DNA from: Pseudomonadota bacterium
GTDB taxonomy: Bacteria; Pseudomonadota; Alphaproteobacteria; Acetobacterales; Acetobacteraceae
Assembly (NCBI GenBank): GCA_021799015.1
Contig: JAJZBH010000001.1
Coordinates: 1 to 53,461, forward strand
Direction: 5' to 3'
DNA length: 53,461 nucleotides
Position numbers and translations under genes: made by a program. Of this stretch, positions 2,923 through 16,104 are shown piece after piece. Within the stretch, counting starts at the first letter, position 1; every line of letters begins with the position of its first letter. The notes under the pieces were generated by a model. That model worked only from the letters and a program-made list of their open reading frames with translations. It was not told the origin of the DNA and did no database searches.

Positions 2923-3662
2923 TGTTGAACACCGGCACGCTGATTGAAAACCGGGCTTACCTTCTTCTGGAAAACGCCATTGCCCACGAATTCCGGAGCA
3001 AGATAGCTCTCGTCTCCTCGTTTGGTACCGAATCCGCCGTGTTATTGCACATGGTGGCGCAGATCGACGCGCATCTGCCGATCTTGTTCCTCGATACCGG
3101 GAAGATTTTCCCCGACACGATCGCCTATCGCGATGGCCTGATCAACCGTCTGCGGCTTTCCAATGTGCGCACGGTCCGGCCCGACCAGAAACACCTGAAC
3201 TCCTATGATCCTGCCGGCCGCCTCTACACGGCAGACCCCGATCTATGCTGCGCACTACGCAAGACAATGCCTCTTGACGCCGCGCTCGAACCCTTCGATG
3301 CTTGGATCTCGGGACGCAAGCGCAATCAAAGCGAGACTAGGCGCGACATCCTACCTCGCGAAACCGGCCCCAATGGAATGACGGTCATCAATCCGCTGTA
3401 CGATTGGAACAAGGCGGACATTGCCCGGTATTTTGCCGAAAATGCCCTGCCGCCCCATCCCCTCGAGGCCAGCGGCTTCACCTCGCTTGGTTGCTTCTCG
3501 TGCACGTCCCGCATTCGTGCTGGCGATGACCCGCGTGCTGGCCGCTGGGCGGGCAGCGGCAAAACCGAATGCGGAATATTCCTTCCACGGCTGGCGATGG
3601 CGGACGAAACCGGCGGCACCCAAGCCGACAGGACGGAAGCCCCCAACACCATGCGCGCGTAG
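2919..3662 (+). CDS. cysH: Phosphoadenylyl-sulfate / adenylyl-sulfate reductase
   Basis: SSFGTES, FLDTG, CCALRK, WISGRK, SLGCFSCT and RAGRW...KTECG motifs. The start may be the ATG at 2922. Confidence 0.93.
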   Translation: MMLNTGTLIENRAYLLLENAIAHEFRSKIALVSSFGTESAVLLHMVAQIDAHLPILFLDTGKIFPDTIAYRDGLINRLRLSNVRTVRPDQKHLNSYDPAGRLYTADPDLCCALRKTMPLDAALEPFDAWISGRKRNQSETRRDILPRETGPNGMTVINPLYDWNKADIARYFAENALPPHPLEASGFTSLGCFSCTSRIRAGDDPRAGRWAGSGKTECGIFLPRLAMADETGGTQADRTEAPNTMRA

Positions 3663-5755: not shown

Positions 5756-7105
5756 ATGATTCGCACGCCAATCACCGCCGAGCTTGCCACACGCGGTCTC
5801 CTGCCATGGGCCTTGCTTCTCGGGCTGAGCTTTTTTTTCGGTTTGGCATTCGAGGAATTTCAGGCCAACGCAGGCCAGAAATGGCCGGGAGGAATCCGTA
5901 GTTTCCCGCTGCTGGCGGTCATAGGTGCTCTGCTTTACGAGCTCGAACCTGAACGGCCGACACTGCTCGGGATTGGGCTTCTGGGCCTGACGATCTGGTT
6001 GGGGTTGTACTACTGGCGGGCCATGGAGGATGCTGCACCTGATGGCTTGCCGAATGTAGGGCTGATGGTGCCAATCTGCGGTGTGATTGCCTATCTTATC
6101 GGACCGATAAGCCTTGCGGCACCGCCCTGGATGGCGACCGGGCTGACGGTTGTTTCGGTTCTTCTCCTGACCGCGCGGGCAACCCTCCATGCCATGGCCC
6201 GCAGGATCGAACTCGCTGAAATCGTAAACGCTGGACGATTTCTACTGCTCACTGGTTTGGTCCTGCCCTTGCTGCCGGATCACCCGGTGACCAATCTGAC
6301 CACGATCACGCCGTATGAAGCCTGGCTTGCTACCGTCGCCGTATGCGCGGTTTCCTATGCGAGCTATCTGCTTCGCCGCTACGCCTTTCCACGCGGCTCC
6401 GGTCTCGTCATAGCAGCGCTCGGCGGTGTCTACTCGGCTACGGTAACAACGATCGTGCTCGCGCGCCGGGCACGCAATGACGCTGAAATGGCGCAGGAAG
6501 CGCGGACGGGTATCATTGTGGCGAATGCGGTCATGTATTTCCGCTTGTTGGCGATAATCGCCGTGTTTGATGGCCCGCTGGCACTGATGCTAACCCCGGC
6601 AATGGTCGTTCTCTCTGCGCTCGGCAGCCTGCTGGCAGGAATGTCTTATTGGTCGACCCGCCGTCGGGTACCCCAGACGATGAGTCCGACCACGATTGTG
6701 CCCAATCCCCTTGGTTTCGGAACGGCGGCATCATTTGGCATCCTGTTCATCGTTGTTTCGCTCCTTGCGGCGTTCATGATGCGCCGGTTTGGTTCGGAGG
6801 GGATTTATGCTCTCGCCGGCGTTGTCGGCATCACGGATATCAATCCGTTCGTTCTCAGTCTGGCGCAACATGGGGTTGCCCCGTTGCAAGACGCAGCCCG
6901 CGCCAGCGCAATTCTGATCGCGGTTGCATCCAACAATGTCTTCCAGGCGATCTACGCGGGTCTTTACTCTGGTGGTCGAACCGGCCCCGCTGTCGTGATG
7001 GGGCTCCTGCTGCTCGCGGTCGCGGGGCTTTCTACCGCGTTCATCACTACCCATATTTTGGTTGAACCGAATCCACACGGGGCCATAGTCTTCCACCCTC
7101 GCTAA
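5756..7105 (+). CDS. MgtC/SapB-family membrane protein with DUF4010 domain
   Basis: N-terminal GLAFEE...GGIRSFPL, many hydrophobic segments, LPLLPD, GGVYSATVTT and GITDINPF motifs typical of MgtC-DUF4010 proteins. Confidence 0.8.
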   Translation: MIRTPITAELATRGLLPWALLLGLSFFFGLAFEEFQANAGQKWPGGIRSFPLLAVIGALLYELEPERPTLLGIGLLGLTIWLGLYYWRAMEDAAPDGLPNVGLMVPICGVIAYLIGPISLAAPPWMATGLTVVSVLLLTARATLHAMARRIELAEIVNAGRFLLLTGLVLPLLPDHPVTNLTTITPYEAWLATVAVCAVSYASYLLRRYAFPRGSGLVIAALGGVYSATVTTIVLARRARNDAEMAQEARTGIIVANAVMYFRLLAIIAVFDGPLALMLTPAMVVLSALGSLLAGMSYWSTRRRVPQTMSPTTIVPNPLGFGTAASFGILFIVVSLLAAFMMRRFGSEGIYALAGVVGITDINPFVLSLAQHGVAPLQDAARASAILIAVASNNVFQAIYAGLYSGGRTGPAVVMGLLLLAVAGLSTAFITTHILVEPNPHGAIVFHPR

Positions 7106-7139: not shown

Positions 7140-9428
7140 ATGGACATGCCGATCTCACCTGCCAGTTTCGCCGTCGCCGAGCAGATCGCTCCAATCTCGC
7201 TGCAGATCTGGGACGCGAAATACAGACTGAAAGATGCCGGCGGCACGCCCATCGACATCTCGATCGAAGAAAGCTGGCGGCGCGTCGCCCGTGCACTCGC
7301 CGAGATCGAAGCAGAGCCCTCACGCTGGGAACCCCTGTTTTACACGGCCTTGGCCGATTTCAGATTCTTGCCAGCAGGGCGGATCCTGTCAGGAGCCGGG
7401 AGTGACCGCCGGGTAACGCTGTTCAACTGTTTCGTCATGGGTGATATCGAGGATGACCTCGGTCAAATTTTCTCGCACCTCCGGGAAGCGGCGCTGACGA
7501 TGCAGCAGGGCGGGGGCATCGGGTATGATTTTTCCTCGCTTCGCCCAAAAGGAGCCCCGGTGCGCGGCGTGGGCGCTGATGCATCCGGCCCCCTTTCTTT
7601 CATGGATGTCTGGGACTCGATGTGCCGGACCATAATGTCCGCTGGGGCACGGCGGGGGGCCATGATGGCAACCTTGCGCTGCGATCATCCCGATATCGAG
7701 GATTTCATAACCGCCAAGCGGGAACCCGGACGACTCAGGAACTTCAATCTTTCGGTTCTGGTAACGGACCCTTTCATGGCGGCAGTCGCCGCGGATGGTA
7801 ACTGGGATCTGACCTTCGGCGGCAGGATATACCGGACAGTCCGGGCGCGCGCCCTGTGGGACAAGCTTACCCGAGCAACGTACGATTATGCAGAGCCGGG
7901 CGTTATTTTCATTGACCGCATCAACTGCCGCAACAACCTCGCTTACTGCGAGACCATCCATGCGACGAATCCTTGCGGAGAACAGCCGCTTCCGGCCTAT
8001 GGCGCGTGCCTGCTGGGTTCCATCAACCTGGCACGTTTGGTCCACAACCCGTTTGAGCCCGATGCCCACATCGACGAACAAGAATTGGTTCAACTCGTCG
8101 GTATCGCAGTCCGGATGATGGACAACACGATCGAGGCTTCGGGCTTCCCTCTCGACGCTCAGCGACGTGAAGCGCATGCAAAGCGCCGGATCGGGCTTGG
8201 CATGACGGGCGTTGCGGACGCGCTGATGATGACCGGGCTGCGCTATGGAAGCGAGGAGGCGGCGGCGCAGGCGTCTGCCTGGGCCAGGCAAATAGAGCGA
8301 GCTGCCTACCTTGCCTCGACAAAGCTGGCTTCTGAAAAGGGAGCCTTTCCCTTATTCGATCGTGATCTGTATCTTGCCGGCGAAACGATCAAGGGCCTGG
8401 ATCCGGACGTCCGCGCCGAGGTCACGAAAAATGGGATTCGAAATGCACTCCTCACATCGATTGCCCCAACCGGAACGATATCCCTGTTTGCGGACAATGT
8501 GTCGAGCGGAATCGAGCCGGTTTTCGCGCTGGCGTACACGCGCAAGGTGCTGCAAGCTGACGGTACGCGACGCGAAGAAGAAGTGAGCGACTATGCACTC
8601 CGCCTTTTCCGCGAGCGCTTTGGTGCCGACGCCCCGCTTCCCGATTATTTTGTTACGGCGCAGGATCTGACGCCCGCCGAACACGTTCGAATGCAAGCCG
8701 CAGTGCAACGCCACGTGGACAGCGCGATTTCGAAGACAGTTAACGTACCAGAAAATATCAGTTTTGAAGCATTCCAGGACGTCTATCTGGACGCCTATCG
8801 TAGCGGCTGCAAAGGCTGCACAACATACCGGCCAAATGCCATCACGGGATCCGTTCTGGAGGTCAGGCCAACCGAGAACTCTGCTACACAACCTTCGGCG
8901 TCGACTACTCCACTGTCAGGCCATGGCGAATTATTGGCCCGAAACGAAAAGCTGACCGGCGCGACCTACAAGCTGCGGTGGCCCGGAAGCGAACACGCGA
9001 TCTATGTCACGCTCAATGATATTGAGCAGGACGGTATCCGGCGACCGTTCGAGATTTTCATTAATTCAAAGAATCTTGAACACTATGCCTGGGTGGTCGC
9101 GCTGACGCGGATGATCAGCGCGGTTTTCCGGCGGGGCGGTGAAGTCGCTTTTGTTGCCGAGGAACTCAAGCAGGTATTCGATCCGCTTGGCGGACATTGG
9201 ACCGAGGGGCGGTACGTCCCTTCCCTGGTCGCCGCAATCGGCGACGTAATCGAACGACATATGGCGGAACTGGGCCTGCTTACGCGTGCTGACGCGCTGG
9301 TCAGCAAAACCGTCTCATCACCCAGCGCACCACTCGGGAAGATTTGTCCTAAATGCAGCCAGCCCGGGGTAATCCAGGAGGAAGGCTGTCTTTCGTGCCT
9401 TAATTGCGGCTGGTCGAAGTGTGGCTAG
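7140..9428 (+). CDS. nrdJ: Class II (adenosylcobalamin-dependent) ribonucleotide reductase with C-terminal TSCPD domain and Cys-rich tail
   Basis: FLPAGRI, TLFNCFV, GGGIGYDFS, TNPCGEQ active site, IAPTGTIS, SAISKTVN, and C-terminal CPKC...CLNCGWSKCG. Confidence 0.93.
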   Translation: MDMPISPASFAVAEQIAPISLQIWDAKYRLKDAGGTPIDISIEESWRRVARALAEIEAEPSRWEPLFYTALADFRFLPAGRILSGAGSDRRVTLFNCFVMGDIEDDLGQIFSHLREAALTMQQGGGIGYDFSSLRPKGAPVRGVGADASGPLSFMDVWDSMCRTIMSAGARRGAMMATLRCDHPDIEDFITAKREPGRLRNFNLSVLVTDPFMAAVAADGNWDLTFGGRIYRTVRARALWDKLTRATYDYAEPGVIFIDRINCRNNLAYCETIHATNPCGEQPLPAYGACLLGSINLARLVHNPFEPDAHIDEQELVQLVGIAVRMMDNTIEASGFPLDAQRREAHAKRRIGLGMTGVADALMMTGLRYGSEEAAAQASAWARQIERAAYLASTKLASEKGAFPLFDRDLYLAGETIKGLDPDVRAEVTKNGIRNALLTSIAPTGTISLFADNVSSGIEPVFALAYTRKVLQADGTRREEEVSDYALRLFRERFGADAPLPDYFVTAQDLTPAEHVRMQAAVQRHVDSAISKTVNVPENISFEAFQDVYLDAYRSGCKGCTTYRPNAITGSVLEVRPTENSATQPSASTTPLSGHGELLARNEKLTGATYKLRWPGSEHAIYVTLNDIEQDGIRRPFEIFINSKNLEHYAWVVALTRMISAVFRRGGEVAFVAEELKQVFDPLGGHWTEGRYVPSLVAAIGDVIERHMAELGLLTRADALVSKTVSSPSAPLGKICPKCSQPGVIQEEGCLSCLNCGWSKCG

Positions 9429-11746: not shown

Positions 11747-12628
11747 TCAATCAAACAGTACTCTGCCGCCTATGGCGTCGAGACGGCTGAGCAAAGCCGG
11801 ATCCCGCTCCGATGGCACGGTGATAATTGCATGATCCAGGGCATGATCACATCCAACGTGGCAATGTTGATGTTCAGCGCCCAAACTGGGAACAACGGCG
11901 CGTACCAAAGCCCGAGCGCGATCGGCGTTCCCGAGCAGGACTTTCACCACGTGCTCTACAGTCACAGCTTCGTGCTCATCATGCCAGCAATCGTAATCGG
12001 TCACCATCGCCACGGTCGCGTAACAAATCTCCGCCTCGCGTGCGAGTTTCGCCTCGGGCATGTTAGTCATGCCAATAACGGAGCATCCCCAGCTTCGATA
12101 GAGCTCGCTTTCCGCGCGTGTAGAAAACTGGGGTCCCTCCATGGCAAGATAGGTACCTCCACGGGTGAAAGGCAAATCCAGAGCGCGAGATGACGTCTCG
12201 AGAGCATCGCCGAGACTGGCACAAACCGGATTAGCCATCGAGACGTGGGCCACGCAGCCTGCACCGAAGAAACTCTTCACGCGCGCAAAGGTTCGATCAA
12301 TAAATTGATCGACAATAACGAAATGACCAGGCGGCAACTCCGCCCGAAGGCTGCCGACCGCCGAAAGGGACAGGATGTCGGTTACCCCGACACGCTTCAG
12401 CGCATCGATATTGGCCCTGAAATTGAGATCGGATGGCGGCACCCGGTGACCCCGGCCATGGCGCGGCAGGAAGACAACCTGCACCCCTGCCAGAGTGCCA
12501 AACAACAATTCGTCAGAAGGCTCGCCCCACGGTGTAGCAACATGTTCCCAATGCTGGTCGGAAAGGCCCTCAATATCATAGAGCCCCGAACCGCCGATAA
12601 TACCAACTACTCTGGCTTTCTGACTCAT
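11747..12628 (-). CDS. mtnP: S-methyl-5'-thioadenosine phosphorylase
   Basis: GIIGGSGLY, PRHGRGH, EGPQFSTRAES, GMTNMPEAKLAREAE and TDYDCW motifs. Confidence 0.95.
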   Translation of the reverse strand: MSQKARVVGIIGGSGLYDIEGLSDQHWEHVATPWGEPSDELLFGTLAGVQVVFLPRHGRGHRVPPSDLNFRANIDALKRVGVTDILSLSAVGSLRAELPPGHFVIVDQFIDRTFARVKSFFGAGCVAHVSMANPVCASLGDALETSSRALDLPFTRGGTYLAMEGPQFSTRAESELYRSWGCSVIGMTNMPEAKLAREAEICYATVAMVTDYDCWHDEHEAVTVEHVVKVLLGNADRARALVRAVVPSLGAEHQHCHVGCDHALDHAIITVPSERDPALLSRLDAIGGRVLFD

Positions 12629-13350
12629 CGTCCCCGCCCCGGGCGCAACGCAATGAAGCCGACCAACCAGAAAACCACGAGATAGATCATTGCCGTTAGC
12701 CCGACCAATTTCCGTTCATTCAAAGTGGGGTCCGCAGACCATGCAAGGAATGCAGTGACATCGTGTGCCATTTCGCCAACATCAGGCTTGACGCCATCCG
12801 CAAACGTGACGGAACCTTTCCTCAAGGCTGGGGCCATCGCAATTTGACCACCAGGATATGCTACATTGTAGTAATAGCCAGGGATCATCGCGACATCGGG
12901 GGGCGCATCTCGGTAACCGGTTAGCAGCGAGTAGAGGGCTTCCGGTCCGCCGCGCCGGGCCGCAACAGTCAAGGAGAGATCCGGGGCAACCACCGCACTC
13001 GCTGCACTACCACGGGAGTCCAATGCGCGCATCCGGTCGTCAGGCGTCACGGCCATTTTCTTTTTGCCTACCACGCGCTTAATTTTGCTTGTTAGCGCTA
13101 CGATCTCGGAACGGGAAAGACCAATTCCTCGGAGATCACGATAACGAATCAAACGCAATCCATGGCATTCCGCGCAATCGGCTTGGTACACCACAAAACC
13201 TTTCTGCAGGGTGGTGGTATCGAAACCGCCAAACGGCGCCTCGAATGGCCATGACTGATGATCGGCGGCAGCACGTGCGACAGGCAGTGCCACAAACAAA
13301 AGAACGATAAAGGCAGCGACACGATTCATCTTAATGCTCCACGCGGCCAT
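12625..13350 (-). CDS. petC: Cytochrome c1
   Basis: Signal peptide, W-x-F-x-x-P-F-G, heme motif CAECH, PDLSL, distal Met in GGQIAMAP, DVTAFLAW and a C-terminal anchor helix. Confidence 0.88.
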   Translation of the reverse strand: MAAWSIKMNRVAAFIVLLFVALPVARAAADHQSWPFEAPFGGFDTTTLQKGFVVYQADCAECHGLRLIRYRDLRGIGLSRSEIVALTSKIKRVVGKKKMAVTPDDRMRALDSRGSAASAVVAPDLSLTVAARRGGPEALYSLLTGYRDAPPDVAMIPGYYYNVAYPGGQIAMAPALRKGSVTFADGVKPDVGEMAHDVTAFLAWSADPTLNERKLVGLTAMIYLVVFWLVGFIALRPGRGR

Positions 13351-14524
13351 CGCCTTTGGTGCGGTTGCCTTCCAGTAAAGTGACGACAGGCGTGATCACG
13401 ACGAGAAAGGCAAACCAGTACAACGTGGCTAAATCTGCGATGATGGGCGAAAAGCGGTAGGCAGGCTCTGCCGCGGCGACTGACAGAATAATAAAATCGA
13501 GCCCAAACAGCCACACGAAAGATCGGAATACCGGGCCCGTTTTGACCGACCGATCACGTGTACGGTCGAGCCAGGGCATTGCACCAAGCAATAACACACT
13601 CCCTATAACCAGGTAAGCGCCACCGCGAACGTTCTGCGCCGCGCCGGCCAAACCTTGAAAAGCCAGAAGATACCATGGCAACGTGACTTGCAGTGGTATG
13701 GCAAGCGGGTCTGGCGGGATTGCGTTTAGTCTTGTCGAGCCCAGCCCGGGCGCGAAAGTGACCAACGCCGCACAGGCAAAGGCTAACAGGATCACACCGC
13801 TGAACAGGTTTCGATTATAATGGGTTCTTTGGACAGCCCAATCGTCGCGTTTGCCATTGTCGCCACCCCGCGACACGTGACGGACTGTCATGGTAAACAC
13901 CGCGACAACAACGAGCAGAAACCCGATCGCTATATGAGCCATGGCGACTCGCGATAACGTTGTCACGCCCACTGAATAGCCGCCGCGCAACGCCATGGCC
14001 AAACCCGGGCCAATAATCGGAAGCACCGCAAGATGCTGCGCCACGCCCGACAGTGAACCGAGGCTCCCAGCACCGCCAACCATGGCAAAGCCAAAGTATG
14101 CTACCGCCACAAGGGCAACGAGACGAAGCACCACAAGAATCCAAGCGAAAGCCCGCAGGCCACGATGGGCACCGCGACTTATTCCGTAAAAAATCTGCAA
14201 ATACACCGCGCCGAACAGCACCGCGGTACTGGCGCCGTGCAGATCCCGGATTAGCCAGCCGAAATTGACGTCGCGCATGATGTATTGCAGGGAGTTGAAG
14301 GCCGACGGGATTCCGGGACGGTAGAAGAAGCCGAGCCATATGCCTGAAATTGTGAGGACAAGCACGGCTACCCAGATCAACGCTTCCATCACGCCGAAGA
14401 CGCCCGCGGAAAGCGGGGCTGAAGCGGGGGACCGCCACCTATTAACGAAGGGGCACACGGACTCCCGTTGGCCTGGCCCCTCCGGCGCGGCGTCCGACTC
14501 CTTGCTGGCGAATGCTTTCTTCAT
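13331..14524 (-). CDS. petB: Cytochrome b homologue, divergent (heme bH ligands and PEWY motif missing)
   Basis: AFNSLQYIMRDVNFGWLIRDLH is clearly cytochrome b; also LPIIG, GGYSV and MPWLD; located between petA-like and petC genes. Confidence 0.85.
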   Translation of the reverse strand: MKKAFASKESDAAPEGPGQRESVCPFVNRWRSPASAPLSAGVFGVMEALIWVAVLVLTISGIWLGFFYRPGIPSAFNSLQYIMRDVNFGWLIRDLHGASTAVLFGAVYLQIFYGISRGAHRGLRAFAWILVVLRLVALVAVAYFGFAMVGGAGSLGSLSGVAQHLAVLPIIGPGLAMALRGGYSVGVTTLSRVAMAHIAIGFLLVVVAVFTMTVRHVSRGGDNGKRDDWAVQRTHYNRNLFSGVILLAFACAALVTFAPGLGSTRLNAIPPDPLAIPLQVTLPWYLLAFQGLAGAAQNVRGGAYLVIGSVLLLGAMPWLDRTRDRSVKTGPVFRSFVWLFGLDFIILSVAAAEPAYRFSPIIADLATLYWFAFLVVITPVVTLLEGNRTKGDGRVEH

Positions 14525-14528
14525 GACT

Positions 14529-15062
14529 TTAGCCCAATATGATTGTGTTCCGATCCGCGAACCGGTACGGCGGGATCTTCAGATTGCGTGCTGCAGCAGC
14601 GTTTAATGCTCGCCCCGCTGCATCGTATCTTGCGCCATTGCAGGGGTCATCGAAGCCATCCGGCGTCGCGACAACTTCGCAGCCGCTGGCGGGATCAACG
14701 GCAACCACAACGATGACGTTCGGCAGGCCCGGCGTAATGCGTGTTGCCAGCGAAACGGGCTGTCGCAAGCTTCGTGTGGGGATAGCCCGGAGCTGGTTCA
14801 TCTGTTGCTTTGTGAGATGGCGAATGATCACCGGGTTATCTCTCCAGATCACCACGTCGGTCTCGCCCGACTTCAGGCTGCCTAGCTCAACGGCGATGTG
14901 CGTCTCCGCCCTCGCGTTTTGATCAGGTCCGAGAGCCGCCCCAAAAATATACGCAAGCGCTCCGGCGGCTACCGCGGCCATGGCAACCATGAGGATCGTC
15001 GAAAATTTCATGGTTGCAGCCTCGCCCCCGTGGTCATGCGTGATTTCGGCCTCATCCATCAC
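14529..15062 (-). CDS. petA: Rieske-fold protein lacking [2Fe-2S] ligands (petA homologue)
   Basis: N-terminal TM helix, WRDNPVIIRH (cf. WRGKPVFIRH), GC...PC.G.RYDAAGR and NLKIPPYRF; first gene of the pet operon. Confidence 0.82.
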   Translation of the reverse strand: MMDEAEITHDHGGEAATMKFSTILMVAMAAVAAGALAYIFGAALGPDQNARAETHIAVELGSLKSGETDVVIWRDNPVIIRHLTKQQMNQLRAIPTRSLRQPVSLATRITPGLPNVIVVVAVDPASGCEVVATPDGFDDPCNGARYDAAGRALNAAAARNLKIPPYRFADRNTIILG

Positions 15063-15219: not shown

Positions 15220-16104
15220 ATGAACCGCCCCGTGACACCAGCCCGCCCCGAGCATGAGGCACTCAAAGCTGAGGTAAAAGCCTGGTTCGAGCAGCTGCGC
15301 GATTGTATCGGCGCCGCCTTCGAAGCAATCGAGCGCGATTATGACGGTCCATTGCGCCACAGGACGCCGGGCCGCTTCGCGTATTCCCATTGGGCGCGGG
15401 AATCCGGAGGAGGAGGCGTTACCGCCGTGATGCGTGGCCGCGTGTTCGAGAAAGTGGGCATCAATGTCTCAACGGTCTGGGGAACGTTCGACCCTGAATT
15501 TGGCAAGACAATCCGCGGGGCCGAGCAGGACCCGCGCTTTTGGGCCACGGGGATCAGCTTGGTGGCGCATATGCATAGCCCTCGCGTTCCCGCCGCACAT
15601 ATGAATACCCGGATGCTCGTAACGACCAAGGGCTGGTTTGGAGGGGGCGGCGACTTGACCCCTTTGCAACCAGGAACGGAAGCAGCTTGCGAAGACGCTG
15701 CAGCCTTCCACACCGCATTTCGCCATGCCTGCGATGCGCATCATCTAAATTATTACGAGAAGTACAGACAATGGTGTGACGACTACTTTTTTCTTCCGCA
15801 CCGCAACGAAATGCGGGGGGCCGGCGGGATCTTTTTTGATTATCTGGACTCCGGAGACCTGGCGGATGATTTTGCCTTCACCCGCGATGTCGGTCTCGCA
15901 TTTCTCGAATCCTATCCCGCAATTGTACGGCGGCGTATGAATGAGCGCTGGACCGAAGCGGAGCGCGAGGCTCAGCTGATCCGCCGAGGACGCTACGTTG
16001 AGTTCAATCTCCTTTATGATCGCGGCACAATATTTGGCCTGAAAACCGGAGGCAACGTTGAGGCGATTTTGATGAGCCTGCCACCCGAGGTTAAGTGGCC
16101 ATAG
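15220..16104 (+). CDS. hemF: Oxygen-dependent coproporphyrinogen III oxidase
   Basis: [44 protein letters not shown] and ILMSLPP motifs. Confidence 0.96.

Follow-up and report, generated by a model that had tools for sequence, protein, structure and literature searches.

A petABC operon under purifying selection without its Rieske cluster and heme bH ligands: a candidate cytochrome bc1 scaffold in an Acidiphilium-type genome

Introduction

What keeps the genes of a cytochrome bc1 complex open when the residues that bind its iron-sulfur cluster and one of its hemes have gone? The question is raised by a petABC operon in the first 53,461 nucleotides of contig JAJZBH010000001.1 (assembly GCA_021799015.1, Acetobacteraceae). 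This whole stretch is called the window here, and positions are those of its forward strand. The operon lies on the minus strand in the hemF–mtnP interval, with no internal stop in any of its three genes. The original prediction, made from the sequence alone, described three open full-length frames with a petA-petB gap of 4 nucleotides and a petC/mtnP overlap. It listed the Rieske ligands, the twin-arginine translocation (Tat) motif, both heme bH histidines and PEWY as missing, and the heme bL histidines, the Rieske disulfide cysteines and the cytochrome c1 heme site as kept. Alignment to canonical homologues confirmed this inventory. Among the roles then proposed, which included a wire from heme bL to c1, a redox sensor and a scaffold, the scaffold fits best. 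On sequence comparisons, we consider it somewhat probable that the petABC products are a redox-dead, bc1-shaped membrane scaffold for the respiratory chain and not an enzyme.

Loci compared

The locus set comprised all 16 pet-bearing congeners, 40 sister-genus genomes (g120, which we infer to be Acidocella) out of 58 with petB, and 20 canonical loci of the family. The canonical controls were high-scoring family loci for PetB and PetC, 14 of which include petA. The 57 deranged PetB proteins referred to below consist of 17 from the present genus and 40 from the sister genus. In all, petB was present in 17 of 18 genomes of the present genus, where it is low-scoring, and in 58 of 61 of the sister genus. 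G000 denotes the present genome; G003 and G007 are its two closest relatives. Every diagnostic ligand or motif residue was kept in all canonical controls (14 PetA; 20 PetB and PetC), so the pattern of residue loss is not a matter of chance.

Cofactor sites of the three subunits

Gene order, the Rieske and cytochrome b folds and the c1 family all match, and petABC are bc1 homologues by descent. The genes and their diagnostic sites, all on the minus strand, are as follows.

petA: 14529..15062, minus strand, 177 amino acids (aa); Rieske fold, lacking the cluster ligands and twin arginines; AGGAGG upstream
petB: 13331..14524, minus strand, 397 aa; cytochrome b, eight hydrophobic segments; bL ligands retained and bH ligands gone, quinol oxidation (Qo) and quinone reduction (Qi) sites eroded
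petC: 12625..13350, minus strand, 241 aa; cytochrome c1 with signal peptide and C-terminal anchor; start probably at 13329
PetA N-terminal anchor, aa 16-46: 14925..15017, minus strand; degenerate Tat position, helix and F-x-x-A-L-G-P end
Former cluster-binding boxes of PetA: 14637..14696, minus strand; D123, A125, D139 and N142 for Cys, His, Cys and His; disulfide C128 and C141 kept
PetB His96, heme bL ligand: 14237..14239, minus strand; kept in 57 of 57 deranged PetB
PetB His197, heme bL ligand: 13934..13936, minus strand; kept in 56 of 57
PetB Gln110 at the first bH histidine position: 14195..14197, minus strand; from alignment
PetB Thr211 at the second bH histidine position: 13892..13894, minus strand; from alignment
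PetB LPWY (L282-P-W-Y) for PEWY: 13670..13681, minus strand; Pro at the Glu position in 57 of 57
PetC heme site CAECH: 13176-13162, minus strand; kept
PetC Met172: 12837-12835, minus strand; kept

PetA matched TIGR01416 under its cut-off (E 3e-23) and bc1 Rieske chains in the PDB, while the Pfam Rieske model gave no match. Its C-x-H-x-G-C box reads D123-P-A125-S-G-C128 and its C-P-C-H box D139-P-C141-N142; all four [2Fe-2S] ligands are gone, against C, H, C, H in 14/14 controls. A single transmembrane anchor spans aa 23-41. Neither R-R nor K-R stands ahead of this helix, and TatC is encoded in the genome. The AlphaFold2 model (mean predicted local distance difference test score, pLDDT, 82.5) matched the Rieske fold with a TM-score of up to 0.74.

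These replacements might be read as a new site, in which PetA would bind another metal through Asp123, Asp139 and Asn142 and recover some catalysis. The change of both ligand cysteines to Asp in the lineage of G000, G003 and G007 and the predicted intact head fold would suit such a site. Its replacements vary by lineage (D/A/D/N, A/Q/D/D and N/G/C-or-S/D), and nine congeners have deleted the head; a metal site is hardly to be expected.

PetB matched PF00033/PF00032 and PetC matched PF02167, and the nearest solved relatives of both are bc1 subunits. Identity of PetB to canonical family members was 25-31%, and its AlphaFold2 model (mean pLDDT 89.6) matched the cytochrome b fold with a TM-score of up to 0.80. 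Both bH histidines together were found in 0 of 57 deranged PetB. In the window, the Qo tyrosine is replaced by Q290 and the Qi aspartate by L240 and the cd helices are lost; a His remains (H216) where the Qi histidine is expected. Throughout the 57, the Qo tyrosine is lost and the Trp after the PEWY-Glu position is kept. Of the 233 canonically conserved positions, only 46 were retained in at least 80% of them; the cd helices of the Qo site and the residues of the Qi site have disappeared, and 14 positions are newly fixed.

The substitution of LPWY for PEWY was as predicted; its weight as a missing Q-cycle element was reduced. The change from Glu to Pro is not in itself inactivating, because PPWY occurs in the working bc1 of Acidithiobacillus, where it is described, in the sections available, as a low-pH adaptation (Kao and Hunte, PMC4122944). 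The stronger argument that loss of PEWY proves inactivity was rejected on the same ground. In the window, the change goes together with loss of the Qo tyrosine and the cd helices.

PetB could still be a one-heme device, trading electrons with the quinone pool through bL. It might sense redox state, buffer quinone or produce superoxide, PetA and PetC being structural partners. The near-invariant bL histidines, the Pro and Trp fixed in all 57 proteins, the 14 newly fixed positions and the acid adaptation of PPWY in a working bc1 (PMC4122944) speak for such a device. It has to do without the Qo tyrosine and with replaced cd-helix positions, and no new conserved His, Cys or Met ligand was common to PetB of the window and its relatives. 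Retention of bL is explained equally well by folding, and the operon contains no signalling gene. We regard a bL device as a minority possibility.

PetC retains CxxCH, Met and the C-terminal anchor as in functional cytochrome bc1. In a complex prediction, PetA 8-58 with PetB and PetC scored 0.66, against 0.00 for the best of three controls, which are possibly not membrane helices; 116 of 157 solved complexes reached the docking mark, as did 2 of 215 mismatched pairs. The predicted docking surface of the anchor is formed by PetB 59-92 and the c1 helix, with contact agreement of at least 83% between runs and a partner pLDDT of at least 69. Since similar complexes have already been solved, this docking indicates likeness alone.

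Losses among relatives

Three states of PetA were found in the present genus. All four ligands and the twin arginines are kept in 4 of 16 congeners (G004, G011, G012 and G017; loci L038, L044, L045 and L050). In these, the potential-tuning Ser and Tyr have become Ala and Phe, and PetB of the same genomes lacks both bH histidines; they may be intermediates with residual linear activity. Full-length PetA without ligands or twin arginines is found in G000, G002, G003 and G007. Nine of the 16 congeners (G001, G005, G006, G009, G010, G013, G014, G015 and G016) encode a mini-PetA of 47-73 aa that consists of the anchor helix only, corresponding to aa 16-46 of PetA. Their open reading frames (ORFs) are as follows.

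mini-petA: L035:2686-2892
mini-petA: L039:4990-5208
mini-petA: L040:4949-5155
mini-petA: L042:3015-3155
mini-petA: L043:5184-5402
mini-petA: L046:3015-3215
mini-petA: L047:4817-4972
mini-petA: L048:5062-5217
mini-petA: L049:2466-2621

All nine end at the petB start or a few bases before it, and a purine-rich, ribosome-site-like sequence was present in six. By hhalign (probability 87, E 4e-6), mini-PetA and the PetA N-terminus are homologous. The ISP signal family gave a weak match in one of five scanned, and seven of eight checked appear in public collections, labelled hypothetical or left unnamed. Mini-PetA was found in 9 of the 11 reaction-centre-positive genomes of the genus.

In the sister genus, PetA is full-length at 40/40 loci and lacks both His and the first Cys, with RR or KR and the disulfide kept. 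A general loss of the Tat signal was therefore rejected; in these sequences the loss of the twin arginines is specific to the present lineage. The loss of bH and the change from Glu to Pro are common to both genera.

Of the 15 congeners whose petC is complete, five have deleted the c1 Met loop, namely at L036, L042, L047, L048 and L049 (genomes G002, G009, G014, G015 and G016); CxxCH and the anchor stay. Changes of c1 ligands are described as altering the c1 potential (PMC2807467, in the part available).

On an mtnP+hemF tree, loss of the Rieske ligands, deletion of the head and loss of the Met all had more than one origin; the order of losses rests on these two genes, whose deep nodes are weakly supported (50-75), without a clade test. 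The losses had been called coordinated and selective. They are selective, and they did not come as a single event, as several arose more than once on this tree. Across the clade, the parts that persist are the core of helices, heme bL, CxxCH and both anchor helices, and the electron-carrying elements have been shed repeatedly.

One sister-genus genome among the 18 outside the locus set, G483 (82% complete), carries a cytochrome b that scores canonical-like (C66:123-683, E 2e-76), which may be contamination or a re-acquired working bc1.

Selection on the operon

Two neighbouring genes served as selection controls.

mtnP-type phosphorylase: 11747..12628, minus strand; downstream neighbour with a 4-nucleotide overlap with petC
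hemF coproporphyrinogen oxidase: 15220..16104, plus strand; divergent neighbour upstream

Codon-model omega in the present and sister genus was 0.18/0.17 for petA, 0.22/0.20 for petB and 0.21/0.14 for petC, with at most 16 sister-genus loci per gene and a present-genus petA set that includes four intact forms. Canonical operons (at most 14 loci per gene) gave 0.12 for petA, 0.10 for petB and 0.11 for petC; mtnP and hemF gave 0.07-0.09. Nei-Gojobori ratios of nonsynonymous to synonymous substitution (dN/dS) between the window and G003 were 0.17 for petA, 0.21 for petB and 0.21 for petC, with 0.06 for mtnP, 0.16 for hemF and 0.09 for argF. Against G007 they were 0.10 for petA, 0.33 for petB and 0.16 for petC, the last on 60 codons. 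Mini-petA gave a pN/pS of 0.26 in three close pairs (35 of 162 synonymous against 24 of 420 nonsynonymous sites; Fisher p 1e-7). Selection on petABC is purifying but relaxed. With open frames and a dN/dS of 0.10-0.33 against the two closest relatives there is no neutral decay, in line with the earlier preference for repurposing over random decay.

A slow decay would have the function lost long ago and the operon being trimmed, with apparent selection arising from avoidance of misfolded membrane protein or from linkage to the downstream mtnP. The stepwise erosion on the tree, the relaxed omega, the genes split at 3 of 40 sister-genus loci and the total loss of the operon in G008 and G490 all fit it. 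It accords poorly with an omega far under 1 even in close pairs and at dS ~1, with the retention of petB in nearly all genomes of both genera (17/18 and 58/61) and with selection on mini-petA itself. Linkage is countered by G008, where mtnP survives a clean deletion of the operon. We therefore hold slow decay to be improbable.

Genomes without the operon

Both G008 and G490 are 99% complete. In G008 the deletion of petABC is clean and leaves hemF about 130 bases from mtnP (L127, about 3320-3440; G008:C17). The hemF match in this genome carries an internal TGA. Its cox operon is intact, as is its nuo14 operon as far as fetched, and therefore neither Complex I nor the aa3 oxidase strictly needs petABC. 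G490 is the single high-quality sister-genus genome without petB (1/38) and also lacks hemF. Its coxB has two frameshifts and its coxA one stop (C2; L134:3013-5576), and its nuo14 operon is intact as far as fetched. On these sequences, G490 is a single case for a tie between petABC and the oxidase, G008 is a single case against any strict dependence, and neither supports a tie to Complex I. A strict need of Complex I for petABC was not supported, as both genomes retain nuo14; gene presence is no measure of stability. CoxB was found in 40 of 42 sister-genus and 18 of 18 present-genus genomes, a rough guide because the model also scores some quinol-oxidase subunits. A short coxA in G017 was rejected as a loss, the gene being cut by a contig end.

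Respiratory context

In the 94%-complete genome, family searches turned up a single cytochrome b and a single c1, and thus no second petBC; the earlier suggestion to look for a second canonical petABC was thereby answered. Two PF00355 matches were rejected as a second bc1, one being a Rieske-reductase fusion and the other a gene for a small Rieske protein next to that of a molybdopterin enzyme.

The genome contains a single heme-copper oxidase operon, of aa3 type, Complex I operons of nuo14 and nuo13 type, several c-cytochromes and two Cyc2-like genes. No reaction-centre genes were found in it. Neither cydAB (bd oxidase) nor a bo3 oxidase was found in this assembly. The two closest relatives have two bd oxidases each, and alignments to these cyd loci break off at contig ends, so that the missing cydAB is most likely an assembly gap. 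The argument that bc1 must work for want of a quinol oxidase was rejected for the same reason.

This context bears on the wire, a non-bifurcating flow of electrons from quinol through bL and c1 to cytochrome c oxidase. The intact bL ligands, CxxCH and Met of the window, the aa3-type oxidase and the absence of bd and bo3 oxidases from the assembly would favour it. The last of these loses force with the bd loci at contig ends and the two bd oxidases of each closest relative. Heme bL has a low potential, which counts against such a wire. Congeners under the same selection have deleted the Rieske head (9/16) and the c1 Met loop (5/15), which argues against it further. The moving Rieske cluster is described as obligatory in bc1 for bridging the Qo site and c1 (PMC7908018, in the part available), and linear flow after damage to the Rieske iron-sulfur protein (ISP) is rejected in section 17 of PMC10715153. 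A bL-to-c1 wire, offered in the original prediction, is in our view very improbable.

Several other genes may supply c-cytochromes. The two Cyc2-like genes, for outer-membrane cytochromes, lie at G000:C82:7617-9098 and C87:12810-14669, one of them followed by a c2-type cytochrome. We call them Cyc2-like from their motif; NCBIfam and PDB sequence searches gave no confirmation. Their Atlas matches, to cytochrome-c-named clusters (0.99) and a porin-family cluster (0.97), are consistent with this label. At G000:C59:495-3115, the intact gene of a small Rieske protein adjoins that of a 710-aa molybdopterin enzyme; the pair resembles arsenite oxidase and is a possible donor to c-cytochromes. Two adjoining diheme c-cytochromes (G000:C1:22182-23749), which we take to resemble thiosulfate dehydrogenase TsdBA, are a possible donor to the aa3 oxidase.

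Further features of the locus and genome

The hemF–mtnP site is the ancestral position of the petABC operon. The petA-petB spacing is 4 nucleotides and the petC/mtnP overlap 4 nucleotides. The ATG at 13329 is preceded by GGAG, falls 1 nucleotide past the petB stop and is aligned with starts in relatives. It is probably the true start of petC, so that the petB/petC overlap described earlier disappears and is probably an artefact. A promoter scan gave 0 sites against 1.7 expected and 7 terminators against 4.5 expected, and was uninformative. A plasmid search returned distant cytochrome b genes only (<60% identity).

Elsewhere in the window, a 762-aa ORF (7140-9428), ordinary-looking and resembling a class II ribonucleotide reductase, follows a gene for what we take to be a 449-aa membrane protein (5756-7105). 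Outside the window, a 487-aa ORF (G000:C2:823-2283) is arginine-rich with HNH-like features; we assume a resemblance to IscB.

Discussion

In the scaffold reading, PetA, PetB and PetC would assemble into a bc1-shaped membrane complex that acts as a structural partner of the respiratory chain. With the Rieske cluster and bH both gone, no Q cycle could run. Quinol would be oxidised by cytochrome bd in place of bc1, and the aa3 oxidase would be supplied by periplasmic c-cytochromes from other donors. PetA, free of its cluster, would no longer need Tat export and would contribute mainly its helix. Heme bL and the c1 CxxCH may be kept since the subunits need them for folding. In the available text of PMC4033779, bL is inserted ahead of bH and a stable half-hemylated intermediate results; this order would explain the retention of bL. 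The scaffold would stabilise a supercomplex, with a benefit that is conditional and not essential. In Paracoccus, the supercomplex is reported to stabilise Complex I (PMC8115037, in the part available, reporting an earlier paper). As candidate partner here, the aa3 oxidase is slightly better placed than Complex I. The repeated erosion of redox parts while the helices and bL stay favours a scaffold over a wire.

Several observations weigh against a scaffold. A full Rieske head with its disulfide is under selection in the lineage of the window and at 40/40 sister-genus loci, which an anchor-only role leaves without explanation. A chemical role is conceivable for the invariant Pro-Trp-Tyr and for several residues newly fixed in PetB, and in Met-less c1 a His adjoining the Met-loop deletion may have taken over as sixth ligand. 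Omega is roughly double the canonical value, and petB or petC is split at 3 of 40 sister-genus loci. PetB residues at the anchor-docking surface were not significantly better retained than others (0.54 against 0.34; 9 against 224 positions; p 0.065). G008 keeps its cox and nuo14 operons without petABC, and G490 has a stop in the unrelated cysI as well, so that its cox lesions may reflect general decay or assembly error.

A more specific form of the scaffold is put forward tentatively and with more doubt than belief: complex III of Acidiphilium might be a dedicated, cofactor-minimal assembly scaffold, made up of a cytochrome b with heme bL, the c1 helix and, at the end of the series, a so far unrecognised Rieske-anchor micro-protein of 50-70 aa, that organises a supercomplex of aa3 oxidase and Complex I. 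If so, the genus would display living intermediates between an enzyme and a pseudo-enzyme, and would be a natural setting in which to ask whether supercomplexes matter apart from catalysis. It has long been asked whether they do more than serve catalysis, and in a complex III that is redox-dead yet selected, structure can be told apart from chemistry. The parts to test are indicated by the series of four-ligand ISP, ligand-less ISP, anchor-only ISP, Met-less c1 and whole deletion. Most of the phototrophic Acidiphilium carry the most eroded forms, which bears on the closing of light-driven electron flow. A set of 'hypothetical' micro-proteins can be re-annotated, and two statements of PMC10715153, given below, are qualified.

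Comparison with known systems

Contrary to the novelty left open in the original prediction, the same derangement was already described by Degli Esposti et al. 2023 (PMC10715153). In the available sections of that paper, the 'deranged' bc1 of acidophilic Acetobacteraceae has an ISP minus three to four ligands with the disulfide kept, a cytochrome b minus the bH histidines and an intact c1. Its retention is suggested to stabilise Complex I, with a Cyc2 iron route feeding the oxidase. By its sequence, the complex of the window belongs to this pattern of Acidiphilium and Acidocella, acidophilic host included; a PetA 96% identical is encoded in an Acidiphilium sp. record (L055). The likeness extends from the ligand losses, kept disulfide and intact c1 to the retained cytochrome c oxidase and Cyc2 and to the structural role proposed.

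Two statements in those sections differ from the present results. Acidiphilium is given there as without an ISP gene, whereas an Acidiphilium-type genome here encodes a full-length ISP without ligands or twin arginines. Loss of bH is given as always accompanied by ISP damage, whereas four congeners pair a four-ligand, twin-arginine ISP with a bH-less cytochrome b. The anchor-only mini-ISP of nine congeners and the c1 without Met of five go beyond that account, and no dN/dS test was found in the sections available. In literature outside subscription journals, no experimental study of a deranged complex and no mention of a truncated ISP or mini-PetA was found. The basic phenomenon is thus already published; new here are the selection test, the anchor-only mini-PetA, the four-ligand intermediates, the Met-less c1 and the deletion genomes.

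The operon shares with canonical alphaproteobacterial bc1 (Paracoccus and Rhodobacter; PDB 2yiu and 2fyn) its gene order, folds, bL ligands, c1 heme site, ISP disulfide and predicted anchor docking. Unlike canonical bc1, it lacks the [2Fe-2S] ligands, the bH ligands and the twin arginines, and its Qo and Qi sites are eroded. The bc1 of Acidithiobacillus ferrooxidans, also from an acidophile, likewise has Pro at the Glu272 position; it is described as working in the available text of PMC4122944, whereas here the change to Pro accompanies the loss of two cofactor sites. A parallel within the same family is the cofactor-less COX1-like protein of Acetobacter (PMC10715153, section 16), a subunit kept without its metal ligands and with a structural role proposed, although it concerns another complex and a single subunit.

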